Source: Candidatus Parvarchaeum sp. (GTDB taxonomy: Archaea > Nanobdellota > Nanobdellia > Parvarchaeales > Parvarchaeaceae). From it: a DNA stretch of 64,000 bases. Made by a program: the position numbers and the translations under genes. The stretch lies in assembly GCA_049965555.1 (NCBI GenBank), contig JBMFWF010000001.1, positions 83,791-147,790 of the forward strand. Reading direction: 5' to 3'. Of the stretch, positions 44,988 through 50,190 are shown in pieces. The first letter of the stretch is position 1, and the number at the start of each line of letters is the position of its first letter. Below the pieces are notes generated by a model. It saw nothing but the letters and a program-made list of their open reading frames with translations, made no database searches and was not told where the DNA came from.

Positions 44988-45494
44988 ATGTTAAAGAGCA
45001 GGATTAATTCAAGAAATTTTATTGTACTGATTGTAATGTCTTTAATAGGGTTAGCTTCATCTATAGTCGTAATAATAGAATTGTACATAGTGCACAGCCT
45101 TCCTCCTTACTGCAAGATCTCTGCAACAGTTGGCGGTAGCGTACTTAACTGCGCAAAGGTGCTTTTAAGCCCCTATGCAAACATAGGCCCTGTGTCATTG
45201 GATTTTCTTGCAGCGCTTTGGTTCATAATAAACATAATCTTTGTTGTATCGATTGCGTTGTCATCTAAAAAAACCGCCAAAAAGGTGCTTGATGTCATGT
45301 TCATATGGCGTTTCTTCGGCATATTGGTAGTCGGCTACCTGCTTTTCCTCGAATTCATAGTTTTGCATGCAATATGCATATACTGCACTGCAATGCACAT
45401 CTGCATAATAATTGACTTTGCAATAGTGAGCTACATCCTGTTTTCGAGAAAATCTAGAATACGCAGAGACATCCTTTCAAGCTCAACAGCTTAA
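44988..45494 (+). CDS. vitamin K epoxide reductase (VKOR) family protein
   Basis: 168 aa, 4-5 TM; loop Cys pair (CKISATVGGSVLNC) and TM CxxC active site (CIYC), the VKOR signature. Confidence 0.55.
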   Translation: MLKSRINSRNFIVLIVMSLIGLASSIVVIIELYIVHSLPPYCKISATVGGSVLNCAKVLLSPYANIGPVSLDFLAALWFIINIIFVVSIALSSKKTAKKVLDVMFIWRFFGILVVGYLLFLEFIVLHAICIYCTAMHICIIIDFAIVSYILFSRKSRIRRDILSSSTA

Positions 45495-46180: not shown

Positions 46181-48547
46181 TCAAATAACAGGGAATTCCC
46201 AGTCCTTAACATGCTCGTTTTTCTGCCCAAGATCATTTTCTAGTTCAACCCTCTTTTCTATCGATGCAACCAATTCCCTTACATGCTCCACGGTATCTGG
46301 ATTCACAGAGATATCGTCTATGTCCGACCTTACTAAAAAGTCAACTATTTCATCATATTCCGAAGGTGCCTGCCCGCATATAGAGACCGTTTTGCCGTCT
46401 CTGTGAGCTACTTTTATCAAGTACCTTATCATCCTCAAAACAGCAAGGTTCCTTTCATCGTAGATGCTGCTTAATGTATCATTATTCCTGTCTGCTCCTA
46501 ATACAAGCATTGTAAGGTCATTTGAGCCTATTGAATAGCCGTCAATGTACTTATTGAACTTGTCCGCCAATATTATATTGCTCGGTATCTCTGCCATAAG
46601 GAATATCTTAAAGTCTTCATTCCTTTCCAAACCGTTCTCTTTAAGTATCTGCAAAACCTTTTCAAGCTCTTCAACTGTTCTTGTGAAAGGGATCATTACA
46701 TGCAAGTTCTTCAATCTGAACTCTTCCCTTACCTTTTTAACCGCCTTTAATTCCAGTACGAATGCATCCTTGTACTTTGGATCGTAATATCTTGAGGATC
46801 CCCTCCACCCCAGCAAAGGACTGCTTTCCTTTGGCTCAAATTCTTCACCGCCTTCCAAGTGCGCATATTCATCTGTTTTGAAATCACTAAATCTAAGGAT
46901 CACCGGCCTTGGATTAAAAGCCGAACAAACCTTTCTCATGCCATCTGCCAATGTATCTACTAAAAGATCCGACTTGCCTTCTTTTATAAGATAAAGAGGG
47001 TGCTTACCTATGTTTGCCCAAATAAATTCTTCCCTCATTAATCCTACGCCATCAGCATGCAGTTTTGCTGTCTTTTCCGCTAAATCAGGTTCCCCAAGAT
47101 TGACAAGTATCTTTGTTCCTGTTATTATCATACCTTCGTTTACAGACGTTTGGCTGCCTTTTTCTTCCTTGTCTTCTTCCGCTTTTATCTCTCCACTGTA
47201 AACCAATCCATTCTTTGAATCCACTGTTATTATATCTCCTGTCTTTATGGTTTCGGTTGCCTTCTTTCCTCTTCCGCCGGTTCCTACTATGCATGGAACA
47301 CCAAGCTCTCTTGAAACTATAGCTGCATGGGATGTTATCCCCCCTTCATCTGTGACAATTGCCTTTGCTTTTTTCATTGCAGGAACCCAGTCGGGGCTCG
47401 TCATGACGGTTATTAGAATCTCACCAGATTTGAACTTGTCGATGTCCTTTACATCCAGTATTACATGTGCCGGGCCTGAAATAAATCCGGGGGAAGCAGG
47501 CAAACCTGAAAGTATAACCCCCTGTTTGTTCTCCACGGTTTTTATTTTGTCCTTGTTTGACCATACAGTTTCGGGCCTTGCTTGTACGATATACAGCTTT
47601 CCATCTTCGTCTCTTGCCCATTCAATATCCATGGGCCTCTTGTAATGCTGCTCTATCTTCATGCCGTATCCAGCAAGCTCTATTACTTTATCGTCTTCCA
47701 AGCATTGTTTCTTTGCTTCATCATCACTTAATTTAACATCCTTTGTTCCCCCTTCCTTTAACCTTATGAGCTTTCTGTCCTTGTTTTCTATTACTTTCTT
47801 TTTGATCTGCATTGTCTTCTTGTCTACGTAGAAAAGATCAGGTGTAACTATGCCCCCGACTATGTATTCGCCTAAACCATAGCTTGCTTCTATAACTATA
47901 ACAGATGTATCGCCATTTGAAACGTCCAATGTGAACATTACTCCTGACTCTATTGAGAAAATCTGTTTTTGTATAACTACTGCAAGAGCAACTGTCTTTG
48001 TGTCTATGTTATTCTTTGCTCTGTAATAAATCGCCCTTTCATTAAATAAGCTGGAATAGCATTCCTTCACCTTCTCAATCAATTCATCATCGCCATGAAC
48101 ATTAAGGTATGTGTCCTGCTGGCCCGCAAAACTTGCATCCGGAAGATCCTCGGCGGTCGCAGAAGATCTAACTGCCACGAACTCTGCATTGCTTTCCTTT
48201 ACAAGCTTATGGTAACTGTCCAATAGCTGTGAGACCAAATCCTTCGGTAGATTAGCATCCATAATTGCGGACTTTATTTCCTGGCTTGCCTTTTTAAGAT
48301 CGCTTTCGCTCTCCACATTTATGTTCTTCAATGTGGCTTCTATCTTTTCTCTTATACTGTTCTCATCAAGAAATTTATTGAAGGCATAAGATGTCGTTGA
48401 AAATCCGGGAGGAACTGGAACTTCAACGTAATTCGTCATTTCACCAAGGTTTGCTGACTTGCCGCCTACTTTGGGAACGTCCTCTTTTTTTATGTCTTTA
48501 AACCATAGAATTAATTTTTCTTCGTTTTCCATTAATTTATGAGGCAT
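46181..48547 (-). CDS. ppsA: phosphoenolpyruvate synthase (pyruvate, water dikinase)
   Basis: 788 aa; phosphohistidine motif GGITSHAAIVSRELGVPCIVGT, ATP-grasp N-terminus, PEP-utilising C-terminal TIM barrel. Confidence 0.9.
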   Translation of the reverse strand: MPHKLMENEEKLILWFKDIKKEDVPKVGGKSANLGEMTNYVEVPVPPGFSTTSYAFNKFLDENSIREKIEATLKNINVESESDLKKASQEIKSAIMDANLPKDLVSQLLDSYHKLVKESNAEFVAVRSSATAEDLPDASFAGQQDTYLNVHGDDELIEKVKECYSSLFNERAIYYRAKNNIDTKTVALAVVIQKQIFSIESGVMFTLDVSNGDTSVIVIEASYGLGEYIVGGIVTPDLFYVDKKTMQIKKKVIENKDRKLIRLKEGGTKDVKLSDDEAKKQCLEDDKVIELAGYGMKIEQHYKRPMDIEWARDEDGKLYIVQARPETVWSNKDKIKTVENKQGVILSGLPASPGFISGPAHVILDVKDIDKFKSGEILITVMTSPDWVPAMKKAKAIVTDEGGITSHAAIVSRELGVPCIVGTGGRGKKATETIKTGDIITVDSKNGLVYSGEIKAEEDKEEKGSQTSVNEGMIITGTKILVNLGEPDLAEKTAKLHADGVGLMREEFIWANIGKHPLYLIKEGKSDLLVDTLADGMRKVCSAFNPRPVILRFSDFKTDEYAHLEGGEEFEPKESSPLLGWRGSSRYYDPKYKDAFVLELKAVKKVREEFRLKNLHVMIPFTRTVEELEKVLQILKENGLERNEDFKIFLMAEIPSNIILADKFNKYIDGYSIGSNDLTMLVLGADRNNDTLSSIYDERNLAVLRMIRYLIKVAHRDGKTVSICGQAPSEYDEIVDFLVRSDIDDISVNPDTVEHVRELVASIEKRVELENDLGQKNEHVKDWEFPVI

Positions 48548-48596
48548 TCATAGAATTAATAAGCTTTTTCGCTTTGATTAAAATGTAAAAAATTAT

Positions 48597-48962
48597 CTAA
48601 AATCTTTTTAGAGAGTGGATAAAATGATTCATGTTTTCGGCTATGTCTCCGCTCATTTTATTGTATTCCTTTATAGCGTTTCTTCCCTTTTCTGTTATTT
48701 TGTACTGCTTTCTTGCCTTTTCACTTTGATTCTCTTTGCTTACTGCTTCTATGTAACCCAAGCGTTCTAGCTGTGCAAGAGAAGGGTAAACTGCTGCAGG
48801 CCCAGGCCTCCACATGCCATCTGTCTTTTCAAATATCTGCTCCATTATCTCAAAACCATGCATAGGTTTCTCTATCAACAATCTAAGTATGAATGGTTGG
48901 AGCAGGCCTTTAGGGACAACGTCAACATTAAAAGGCCCACATCTACAACGTCTTCCGTTCAT
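48597..48962 (-). CDS. PadR-family transcriptional regulator
   Basis: wHTH PadR core (FILRLLIEKPMHGFEIMEQIFEKTDGMWRPGPAAVYPSLAQLERLGYIE). The real start is probably an internal Met. Confidence 0.7.
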   Translation of the reverse strand: MNGRRCRCGPFNVDVVPKGLLQPFILRLLIEKPMHGFEIMEQIFEKTDGMWRPGPAAVYPSLAQLERLGYIEAVSKENQSEKARKQYKITEKGRNAIKEYNKMSGDIAENMNHFIHSLKRF

Positions 48963-48964
48963 AT

Positions 48965-49207
48965 TCAGCTGTTTTCCTCATCGCTGTCTTCATTAGAACT
49001 GTTTTTGGAAAGTTCTTCTATCCTTCTATTGATAAATTTTATTTCCTCTTCCAGCTCTTCTTTATAGTCTTGAAGGTTTTCCTTCAGGTCCTTCTTTTCA
49101 GGAGGCATTTCATTCTGCATTCTCATCATGCCATGCCTACCCATTCTGTTCATTCCTCTGTTTCCACAGCCGCAACCGCAGCCGCACCCACCATTGTTCA
49201 TTCCCAT
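48965..49207 (-). CDS. small Gly/Cys/Met-rich protein with (GC)n repeat and acidic coiled-coil tail
   Basis: 80 aa; MGMNNGGCGCGCGCGNRGMNRMGRHGMMRMQNEM... then K/E-rich helix; stop 2 nt before the PadR gene (co-transcribed); GGTGAT SD. Confidence 0.4.
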   Translation of the reverse strand: MGMNNGGCGCGCGCGNRGMNRMGRHGMMRMQNEMPPEKKDLKENLQDYKEELEEEIKFINRRIEELSKNSSNEDSDEENS

Positions 49208-49396
49208 ATTATATCACCTCTGATATAATTACTTATATCTCTACTAGTATAAATACTTTATAATAAACAAGTTAGAAGCCAACTAATAGTAATAAAGGGG
49301 ACCTTTTTTAGCGGTCTTTTCTTTAATTGAAGTTATATGGATTTAATACAGTTGATCTCATAAACACTAAAAAATAACTATATACAGAATAGACAT

Positions 49397-49855
49397 TCAG
49401 CTTGTATAATTGTATGTTGAATTTGATGCCAGCACATTAAAACCGAATAAATTAGAATAAGCTTTCAAATGTATCTCTCCGGTATGCAATCCCTTGACAG
49501 TTATCACGCCGAATTTTGCCGGAGCTATCGCTGTACCGTTGTTAAGAATAGTAAGGGACTGGTTGTTTATCGATGCTGTAAAACTGTCTATGCTTACTAA
49601 GTCGGCGTTGAATATTATTATATTGCTTGTATTGTCTATCCCCTGTGAGACTCCAACTATATTGGGGCCGAAATTTACTGGAAGGCTATATCCCGGTAGA
49701 CCTATTATGGGAGTAGAGTGGAATATAAGCGCACTGCCTGCGAAGATTAGAATTATGACTATTATGCCTTCCAATGCGGGTTTAAGAATGCGTATAAAGG
49801 TTATTATTGCAACGGCAATTATGGCTATTCCCAGTATAAGCTCTATGTCCACCAT
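49397..49855 (-). CDS. membrane-anchored secreted protein, function unknown
   Basis: 152 aa; two N-terminal hydrophobic helices then Ser/Asn-rich segment with N-x-S/T sequons. Confidence 0.35.
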   Translation of the reverse strand: MVDIELILGIAIIAVAIITFIRILKPALEGIIVIILIFAGSALIFHSTPIIGLPGYSLPVNFGPNIVGVSQGIDNTSNIIIFNADLVSIDSFTASINNQSLTILNNGTAIAPAKFGVITVKGLHTGEIHLKAYSNLFGFNVLASNSTYNYTS

Positions 49856-49915: not shown

Positions 49916-50095
49916 TTAGAAGTCGTGTGCCCTAAGTGTCTTTCTGCCGTCAGCTTTAGCTCTTGCTACTGCTTTGGCGATTGACTCTTTGACAAACTTG
50001 TCAAGACCTTCTATTGTGTCATCAGGGCAACGCATGTCCTTACCGACTTTCTTGACTTCTTCTTTTACTGAACTTTTTCTTACGAAATCTGCCAT
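49916..50095 (-). CDS. archaeal histone (HMf-family histone fold)
   Basis: Start taken at the internal Met (MADFVRK...), giving 59 aa. The C-terminus AVARAKADGRKTLRAHDF matches the HMfB ...AKHAGRKTIKAEDI. The preceding DD..IE.L...V.E is histone-fold-like. Confidence 0.55.
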   Translation of the reverse strand: MADFVRKSSVKEEVKKVGKDMRCPDDTIEGLDKFVKESIAKAVARAKADGRKTLRAHDF

Positions 50096-50190
50096 ATTAC
50101 CTCCTATTATACTGTATTTAAGCAAATATGCATTTAAAAAGCTGTTTATTGACACAAATAGCTTTATTTAGATAAATTCAATAAATTCAT

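Follow-up and report, generated by a model that had tools for sequence, protein, structure and literature searches.

A conserved two-gene unit pairing a PadR-family regulator with a small cysteine-rich protein in Candidatus Parvarchaeum: a candidate thiol-based sensor

In a 64,000-nucleotide (nt) stretch of DNA from Candidatus Parvarchaeum, an ARMAN-type DPANN archaeon (hereafter the window; all coordinates are window positions), a small open reading frame (ORF) with a cysteine-rich N terminus is followed directly by the gene for a PadR-family repressor, and a palindrome lies at the start of the small ORF. The pairing, the cysteine motifs and the position of the palindrome are conserved well beyond this genome, and together they describe a compact module that may act as a sensor. 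The two genes are arranged as follows:

48965..49207, minus strand: small ORF of 80 amino acids (aa), DUF5320-like, with a Cys/Met/Gly-rich disordered N terminus and a single coiled-coil helix
48597..48962, minus strand: PadR-family repressor of 121 aa (PF03551), with the short "subfamily 2" architecture

The small ORF starts MGMNNGGCGCGCGCGNRGMNRMGRHGMMRMQNEM... and continues into an acidic helical tail. Its TGA stop occupies positions 48965-48967 and, after a gap of 2 nt, the PadR gene begins with an ATG at 48962; the ORF coordinates thus bear out the first-pass annotation of this locus, which had placed the end of the small ORF 2 nt before the PadR start. No second copy of either gene was found in the window.

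The small ORF is a real gene under strong purifying selection. Nine relatives were found at 53-94% identity, and the mean ratio of nonsynonymous to synonymous substitution rates (dN/dS) is 0.084 (44 pairs among 10 Parvarchaeota orthologues, with dS ~1.06 and dN ~0.09), ranging from 0.06 to 0.12 for orthologues compared with the window copy. The reading that the ORF is not a gene is ruled out by this ratio together with conservation across phyla. The protein, which is 100% identical to an NCBI entry named [quoted passage not shown], belongs to Pfam family PF17253 (DUF5320) with a score of 31.5 bits (E = 4.2e-7; cut-off 27). The match joins residues 4-66 to positions 33-99 of the 99-position profile, leaving the N-terminal third of the profile unmatched. 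Three parts of the protein can be told apart:

49163..49189, minus strand: (Gly-Cys)4 tract, residues G7-G15 with Cys8, 10, 12 and 14, encoded by a hexanucleotide tandem repeat
49106..49153, minus strand: Met/Arg/Gly-rich stretch, residues M19-M34, with 7 Met and 1 His (from translations and alignment)
48980..49096, minus strand: amphipathic coiled-coil helix at the C terminus (residues 38-76), where the family is best conserved

All four cysteines of the protein fall within residues 8-14, half of the protein is a Cys-free helix, and there is no CxxC motif. The tandem repeat that encodes the Gly-Cys units (49167-49186, period 6, 3.3 copies) varies in unit number between orthologues, which carry two to four cysteines as a result. 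C10 and C12 of the window protein align with the C-x-C core of the family; C12 is invariant in alignments A3 and A4, and C10 is almost so. The Met-rich stretch is present in Parvarchaeota, Micrarchaeota and Marsarchaeota and absent from Bathyarchaeia and Nitrososphaerota, a distribution that marks it as a lineage-specific feature of the acidophilic DPANN and Marsarchaeota versions, not as part of the family core. The helix follows the motif L..YK..LE.EI..I.KRI..L, in which Y48 and L52 are invariant in both alignments and I63 is invariant in A3 and nearly so in A4. AlphaFold2 predicts residues 1-36 to be disordered and residues 38-76 to form one confident helix, with predicted local distance difference test (pLDDT) block means of 92 and 96 over residues 41-60. 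The search of solved structures with the small protein returned coiled-coil noise only.

The downstream gene encodes a member of PF03551, scoring 73.9 bits (cut-off 27) over residues 25-99, which span the whole profile; against the NCBIfam model TIGR03433 (padR_acidobact) it scores 58.5 bits, below the cut-off of 101.8, and is not assigned to that family. In the AlphaFold2 model (pLDDT 77.7), helices at residues 21-31, 36-46 and 55-68 and wing strands at 71-73 and 86-89 are followed by a single C-terminal helix at 91-120. PadR subfamily 2 is defined by a length of ~110 aa and one C-terminal helix after the winged helix-turn-helix (PMC3506622), and with its 121 aa and single modeled C-terminal helix the window PadR falls within this LmrR-like group. 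Its best solved relatives are the short PadRs 1xma and 3elk. Ahead of the canonical fold lies a motif that holds the only Cys cluster of the protein:

48930..48947, minus strand: N-terminal C-x-C-G-P-F motif of PadR (C6, C8, G9, P10, F11)

The motif is invariant in 22 of 22 aligned PadR orthologues (49-93% identity). A scan with the PadR alignment, taking one genome per species, gave 63 archaeal loci, and CxCGPF is found in 53 of them. No solved PadR structure covers the segment, as all matches begin at position 16 or later. The AlphaFold2 model shows a short β-hairpin there (E5-8/E11-14), ahead of helix 1 and with low confidence (pLDDT 51-59), and places the Cys pair on one strand of the hairpin, outside the canonical fold.

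Using a profile built from the small proteins, we detected a partner directly upstream of PadR and on the same strand in 52 of the 63 loci. The remaining 11 comprise three without upstream DNA, one with a 43-aa short version, two weak PadR matches and five from a partner-less Micrarchaeota subclade. Together with a dN/dS of ~0.08, this count upholds the initial view that the small ORF is genuine and tightly coupled to PadR. The pair occurs in at least seven lineages, namely Parvarchaeota, Micrarchaeota, Marsarchaeota, Thermoprotei, Nitrososphaerota, Bathyarchaeia and Thermoplasmata, with PadR orthologues at 50-65% identity in several of the lineages other than Parvarchaeota. The homologue search that the first-pass annotation had proposed thus found relatives in these archaea and also in bacteria, so that absence from relatives is ruled out; what had been taken for an unusual cassette is a conserved module and no oddity of one genome.

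In the pairs read directly, the two genes are separated by 0-29 nt or overlap slightly; in Micrarchaeota, Marsarchaeota and Bathyarchaeia, where this was checked directly, the small ORF overlaps PadR or lies 5-12 nt away. The Micrarchaeota partner carries DCGCGCGHG, then a Met/His-rich stretch and then the helix; that of Marsarchaeota has DCGCNCRG followed by MHHRMHRHGGMSMHGMGM, and that of Bathyarchaeia has QCGCYCGG and lacks the Met-rich part. Some partners bear a PadR-like CxCGP motif of their own. Within one Nitrososphaera clade, where the PadR motif reads CRFGPF and retains one cysteine, three of four partners are likewise single-Cys proteins, a parallel loss of cysteine in the two partners. 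Clustering of all flanking ORFs in the archaeal loci recovered no other gene family that recurs across lineages, and the flanking genes vary from one lineage to the next.

Several individual loci deserve separate description. At a Bathyarchaeia locus (L009:85-3930), genes for an SQR-like flavoprotein, a DUF3335 protein and a GcvH-TusA fusion lie upstream of the pair, DUF2703 and thioredoxin_3 genes lie downstream, and an AhpC gene is close by on the opposite strand, a setting that suggests sulfur or thiol stress. In the partner-less Micrarchaeota subclade (L061, L064, L065, L067 and L069), the PadR motif reads YCKCGPFxVNMMP, and each PadR is followed by a conserved 218-aa protein (for example, L069:2879-3535) with two thioredoxin/glutaredoxin-like halves that resembles protein disulfide oxidoreductase (PDO), a neighbor that hints at a thiol-redox link. 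One metagenome-assembled genome (MAG), TL2-4.bin18, holds an intact copy of the pair (L021) and a second copy (small gene L017:2313-2498, product P0010; PadR 2501-2863). In P0010 the Cys-rich N terminus has been exchanged for unrelated sequence (MVDLDSTKNAIKKLVEKYNTLEKEG...), with helix and PadR intact, and the upstream palindrome is missing; this copy is a natural Cys-less, operator-less variant. No natural fusion of PadR to its partner was found. One candidate, a 152-aa "PadR" (P0066) from a 754-nt ENA contig, was rejected as an assembly chimera: after residue ~93 it is an antisense translation of a Gly-Cys/Met-rich gene (HVHPHSSAHTSAHATVH...).

The region upstream of the small gene contains three elements of interest:

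49210..49227, no strand assigned: palindrome TATATC-N6-GATATA, candidate PadR operator, which overlaps the Shine-Dalgarno sequence GAGGTG and ends 2 nt before the ATG
49233..49239, no strand assigned: extra half-site GATATAA (coding strand), read from the sequence and conserved in Parvarchaeota loci
49248..49255, minus strand: candidate archaeal TATA box, TTTATA (coding strand), with "aaagtaTTTATA" conserved in all Parvarchaeota loci

The 18-bp candidate operator reads TATATCAGAGGTGATATA. Within it lies the 6-4-6 inverted repeat of the first-pass annotation (49211-49226; plus strand ATATCACCTCTGATAT, coding strand ATATCA-GAGG-TGATAT), 3 nt from the ATG. The repeat contains the Shine-Dalgarno sequence, in line with the overlap that had been described, but it is not the ordinary product of an AT-rich genome for which it had been taken, as its arms are conserved across phyla that include GC-richer genomes. 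ATATC-N6-GATAT occurs once in the window against an expectation of 0.08. Measured from the upstream end of the reading frame of the small ORF, an exact copy lies within 130 nt at 40 of the 52 small-ORF starts and a copy with one mismatch at 11 more; no exact copy occurs in the other 234,066 nt of these loci. The arms, usually TATATC...GATATA, are kept from AT-rich Parvarchaeota to GC-richer Thermoplasmata and Nitrososphaerota, and it is the six bases between them that differ (GAGGTG, ACTAGT, AGCTCT, GATACC and others). What is conserved is thus the arms and not the ribosome-binding site. The palindrome is the most conserved noncoding element of the module and is likely the operator of PadR.

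In Nitrososphaerota, Bathyarchaeia and Thermoplasmata the palindrome lies ~10-45 nt 5′ of the ATG, away from the Shine-Dalgarno sequence. In Micrarchaeota, a TTTAAATA box precedes the palindrome by ~17 nt, and the ATG comes 1-2 nt after the palindrome; the position of the box would therefore have the palindrome overlap the transcription start, which is the usual place for an archaeal repressor to bind. The window TATA box, ~40 nt 5′ of the ATG, likewise suggests a transcription start near the operator half-sites. The extra half-site and the left arm of the operator together form a second palindrome of 7-4-7 (GATATAA-GTAA-TTATATC), so that the full half-site array reads GATATAA-GTAA-TTATATC-AGAGGT-GATATAA. 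We also observed a weak 12-nt periodicity at 49223-49264 (3.6 units, 64% matches), each unit holding a TATA-like or GATATA core: the TATA box and then three half-sites about one helical turn apart. Known PadR operators consist of an ATGT/ACAT inverted repeat with a spacer of 8-10 nt (PMC3506622); written as ATAT-N8-ATAT, the palindrome has the same spacing and a different core sequence. The window contains no second exact operator, and its 14 other sites, each with two mismatches, have no obvious link to gene starts, so that no regulon can be defined from the window.

A profile search of 1.84 billion representative proteins (E ≤ 0.001) extended the family of the small protein to at least 1,243 clusters at 50% identity. 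Among 130 new matches that were inspected, 123 contain CxC or CC, many are His-rich, and all share the helix motif ...RRFxTxEExIxxLExY...VEERIxEL. The N-terminal regions of 223 family members consist of 10.3% Cys, 8.7% His, 6.6% Met and 21% Gly, compared with 0.1% Cys in their helices, and the bacterial versions are strongly His/Cys-rich, containing CECDCDCH, HHGHH and the like. Ten diverse relatives all stay below the PF17253 cut-off of 27 (the best score 22.6, 19.3 and 17.7 bits), and several give no match or match a prefoldin-type coiled coil instead; the clade straddles the boundary of DUF5320.

To place the bacterial-type members in their gene context, we surveyed 80 metagenomic loci, 66 of which include an upstream neighbor. 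That neighbor is a PadR with a Cys/His-rich N terminus (for example, ...SCCPPGGRVRGFIQPWLLLLL) in 37 of the 66 and an ArsR/SmtB (HTH_5) regulator with Cys in the α-3 region in 19. The bacterial PadR typically ends 6 nt before the small gene, which is thus downstream of its regulator. Often found further downstream are ATP-binding cassette (ABC) exporters, the chromate transporter ChrA or an ArsP-like permease; at some loci a Fer4_5 membrane ferredoxin lies downstream. Single look-ups gave an ArsR upstream of one member (P0198) and, adjoining another (P0177), a divergent PadR with an N-terminal GCGTCD motif. In a bacterial MAG (L076:1385-3824), a distant relative (P0185), which has GGCGCGCGGGGG and the helix, shares its operon with genes for an ECF sigma factor, a zf-HC2 anti-sigma factor and a heavy-metal-resistance/LTXXQ protein of the periplasm; here, to judge from the gene order, the small protein is coupled to another kind of regulator.

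Comparison of related loci also sets the limits of the unit. In the window the pair is followed by ppsA, and in a relative (L005) the pair is intact with thyA in place of ppsA, which argues that the unit consists of two genes only. As no flanking gene recurs across archaeal lineages, ppsA falls outside the unit. A likely terminator lies a few nucleotides 3′ of the PadR stop:

48580..48592, minus strand: oligo-T runs (T6 and T4 on the coding strand)

These runs are likely an archaeal terminator, which would make the unit bicistronic. The ppsA ORF as listed starts at 48547 on the minus strand (MPHKLMENEEK...), and its next Met is at 48532 (MENEEK...); a TTATTAA box stands ~10 nt 5′ of the listed ATG and ~24 nt 5′ of the second Met, and the true start may be the second Met on a leaderless transcript. 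Just upstream of the pair are a 152-aa ORF (49397-49855, minus strand) and a small basic ORF (49916-50155, minus strand; called as 59 aa in relatives and starting MADFVRKSSVKEEVKK...). Neither has a match in Pfam or NCBIfam, and both keep their place beside the pair in several Parvarchaeota loci. Farther away, a 168-aa membrane ORF with paired cysteines (44988-45494, plus strand) appears to match a VKOR-family (PF07884) gene at the equivalent position in four relatives (L001-L004). In a DPANN archaeon with a small genome, a disulfide-forming enzyme would be notable; no connection of this ORF with the PadR pair was established.

Taking these features together, we hold with moderate confidence that the pair constitutes a self-contained, autoregulated two-gene sensor whose signal is most likely soft metals or metalloids. 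PadR and its 80-aa partner would be translated in fixed proportion. A PadR dimer would bind TATATC-N6-GATATA together with the neighboring half-site and, once bound, would cover the transcription start and the ribosome-binding region of the small gene, thereby repressing its own operon. As the signal we envisage Cu(I), Zn/Cd, As(III) or another metal or metalloid that binds thiols, captured jointly by the cysteines of PadR and the partner, with the partner held by its helix either on PadR or as an oligomer. Capture of the signal would then alter DNA binding and release repression. Four elements of this scheme are inferred: that PadR recognizes the palindrome, that it is in contact with its partner, what the signal is, and in which direction the module responds.

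Soft metals and metalloids are favored as the signal because of the His/Met/Cys ligand composition and the ArsR/SmtB and efflux neighbors of relatives. The earlier suggestion of a soft-metal-binding peptide is retained in part: the composition of the small protein and its comparative context fit soft-metal binding, but the Met-rich stretch on which it had drawn does not belong to the family core. Its division of labor between a sensor and an effector probably needs revision. Given the invariant CxCGPF of PadR itself and the parallel loss of cysteines in the Nitrososphaera clade, PadR is probably a co-sensor and not just a regulator beside an effector peptide. A more specific proposal, which we regard as possible but advance only tentatively, is that the CxC hairpin of PadR and the CxC(xC) of the partner jointly form a metal-thiolate site. 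The module would then represent an unrecognized class of two-polypeptide metalloregulator in Archaea and Bacteria, with either PadR or ArsR as the winged-helix subunit and with an archaeal PadR branch that has an operator of its own.

A number of observations weigh against this interpretation. The window protein has only four cysteines, and some family members have a single one. In one locus (L068) PadR has lost both cysteines and the partner keeps its CxC, so a strictly shared Cys site is not universal, and the hairpin that carries the PadR motif is predicted with low confidence (pLDDT 51-59). Genes for efflux or detoxification are missing from the archaeal operon, and the 64-kb window yielded no second operator. 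Some loci have thiol-redox or sulfur neighbors (MsrB and hemerythrin; SQR-like, TusA, thioredoxin and AhpC; and the PDO-like protein beside partner-less PadRs). Finally, an mRNA hairpin could also form from the extended palindrome in Parvarchaeota (-7.3 kcal/mol, z = -2.7).

The main rival to soft-metal sensing, which we nevertheless consider rather unlikely, is a thiol-redox or reactive-sulfur switch, through which oxidants, persulfides or disulfide stress would act on the CxC cysteines of PadR and partner, by modification or cross-linking, and so release the repressor. Such a switch would suit the MsrB and hemerythrin genes that precede the pair in Micrarchaeum, the SQR-like/GcvH-TusA and DUF2703, thioredoxin_3 and AhpC genes that flank it in Bathyarchaeia, the PDO-like gene with its double thioredoxin fold that follows the partner-less PadRs, and the HxlR-type regulator that adjoins another relative; moreover, a single Cys in each partner would still permit an intermolecular disulfide. 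These redox-type neighbors, however, vary across lineages, and the strong N-terminal enrichment in His and Met is typical of metal ligands and not of redox switches. The ArsR/SmtB partners in bacteria and the ChrA, ArsP-like and ABC efflux neighbors point to metals, metalloids or toxic compounds instead, and a literature search joining the PadR family with redox, disulfide and cysteine residues found no paper.

It is also improbable, in our estimation, that the two proteins have separate roles, with PadR sensing alone through its CxC and the small protein serving as a regulated mini metal-buffering or chaperone peptide that oligomerizes by its coiled coil, much as a metallothionein does under an SmtB-type repressor. 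A disordered Cys/His/Met/Gly-rich N terminus fused to an oligomerizing helix would be apt for this purpose, the bacterial versions are very His/Cys-rich, and the operator lies upstream of the small gene, so the small protein would be the first product upon derepression. Many members, however, have one to three cysteines and no Met/His tract (Nitrososphaerota and Bathyarchaeia), which is too few for buffering, and the helix is better conserved than the ligand region, pointing to a specific contact with another protein. In archaea and bacteria alike the small protein is paired with a Cys-bearing regulator, whichever of the two genes comes first, and in one clade both partners have lost cysteines in parallel.

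A joint iron-sulfur cluster, by which the module would sense iron, oxygen or nitric oxide in the manner of Rrf2-type or SoxR-type regulators, is very improbable. The C-G-C-G-C strings, which we take to resemble part of the SoxR cluster-binding motif, and the Fer4_5 membrane ferredoxin downstream at some bacterial loci speak for it, but cysteine number and spacing vary widely, from 1 to >8, unlike conserved iron-sulfur ligand sets; several pairs would be short of cysteines even as a 2:2 complex, and the enrichment in His and Met is left unexplained. Equally hard to credit is action at the RNA level, with the inverted repeat as a hairpin masking the ribosome-binding site and not a protein operator: the window does offer a 9-bp stem across the Shine-Dalgarno sequence with the folding energy and z score given above, but Rfam gives no match (E ≤ 1) between 48300 and 49900, the invariant arms and variable center allow no covariation, one-mismatch variants disrupt the innermost pair, the palindrome stands clear of the Shine-Dalgarno sequence in three of the lineages described above, and in Micrarchaeota the position of the upstream box means that the left arm is probably untranscribed.

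On this basis we rate the module as a widespread, directly testable candidate for a cysteine-based stress sensor of the winged-helix type that works with a small accessory protein. The PadR regulators known to date mostly sense drugs and phenolic compounds, and a clade that relies on cysteines and on an obligatory small partner would, if confirmed, represent a new mode of sensing for the family. It would also give a function to a large number of small proteins that lack an annotation or carry a wrong one, now labeled "hypothetical", "prefoldin subunit" or DUF5320, which occur in archaea of acid mine drainage, hot springs and soils as well as in bacteria. The module is compact, comprising two genes and one 18-bp site, and its presence in a cultivated Micrarchaeum co-culture (Candidatus Micrarchaeum A_DKE, NZ_CP060530.1, locus L056) makes it directly accessible to experiment. 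That a dedicated stress sensor would be kept in tiny DPANN genomes is informative on what these archaea must sense for themselves.

DUF5320 (PF17253), a family with no assigned function, has a Gly/Met/Arg-rich region and, after it, a coiled coil at the C terminus, and the small protein of the window has both. The family description mentions neither the C-x-C cluster nor a link to PadR or ArsR, and orthologues in other archaeal phyla and the Cys/His-rich bacterial relatives mostly fall below the cut-off. A search of the literature found no functional study of DUF5320, a name that two papers mention, one of them only in passing, and no description of the pairing of PadR with a small Cys-rich protein, of its CxCGPF motif or of the operator; there was no metal-sensing PadR among the matches listed, and the two papers on PadR, Nitrososphaera and copper were unrelated. 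The regulator resembles members of PadR subfamily 2 such as LmrR and bcPadR1/2 in its length of ~110-120 aa and its winged helix-turn-helix with a single C-terminal dimerization helix (PMC3506622), in the autoregulated operon that we propose for the window pair, and, for the candidate operator, in the spacing of its two 4-nt cores, which lie 8 nt apart (ATAT-N8-ATAT here and ATGT-N8-10-ACAT there). LmrR precedes LmrCD, and bacterial versions of the module likewise precede ABC exporters. The module differs in its extra N-terminal CxCGPF segment, predicted to be a hairpin and covered by no solved PadR structure, in its obligatory small partner gene and in its operator sequence; in the known members of subfamily 2, drugs or phenolic acids are sensed by a pocket and not via cysteines.

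Among metal-responsive systems, the CopY/CopZ copper switch of Enterococcus hirae likewise has a small Cys-containing partner in the same autoregulated operon and a palindromic operator. The likeness extends to the regulator, a winged-helix repressor bearing CxC cysteines, which in CopY bind Zn(II) or Cu(I) and so control DNA binding (PMC12648655). CopY is of the BlaI/MecI type with a C-terminal CxCx4CxC, whereas the window regulator is a PadR with a single N-terminal CxC and has no penicillinase-repressor family among its Pfam matches. The partners differ as well: CopZ/Atx1 is an HMA ferredoxin-fold chaperone with MxCxxC, and the small protein, predicted to be a disordered Cys cluster and a coiled coil, has neither an HMA match in Pfam nor a CxxC. 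In addition, the archaeal PadR operon is without a copper ATPase. The ArsR/ArsD and SmtB/metallothionein systems offer a further parallel, in that a winged-helix metal or metalloid repressor is encoded together with a small Cys-rich protein. The window regulator has no HTH_5 match, and the small protein bears no similarity to ArsD or to metallothioneins, which have no counterpart of the conserved coiled coil; its four cysteines in 80 aa, all confined to one short segment, also set it apart from metallothioneins, short proteins that are very rich in Cys, with CxC, CxxC or CC clusters over most of their length. ArsR/SmtB is nonetheless a real partner regulator of the small-protein family, occupying the upstream position in 19 of the 66 bacterial loci.

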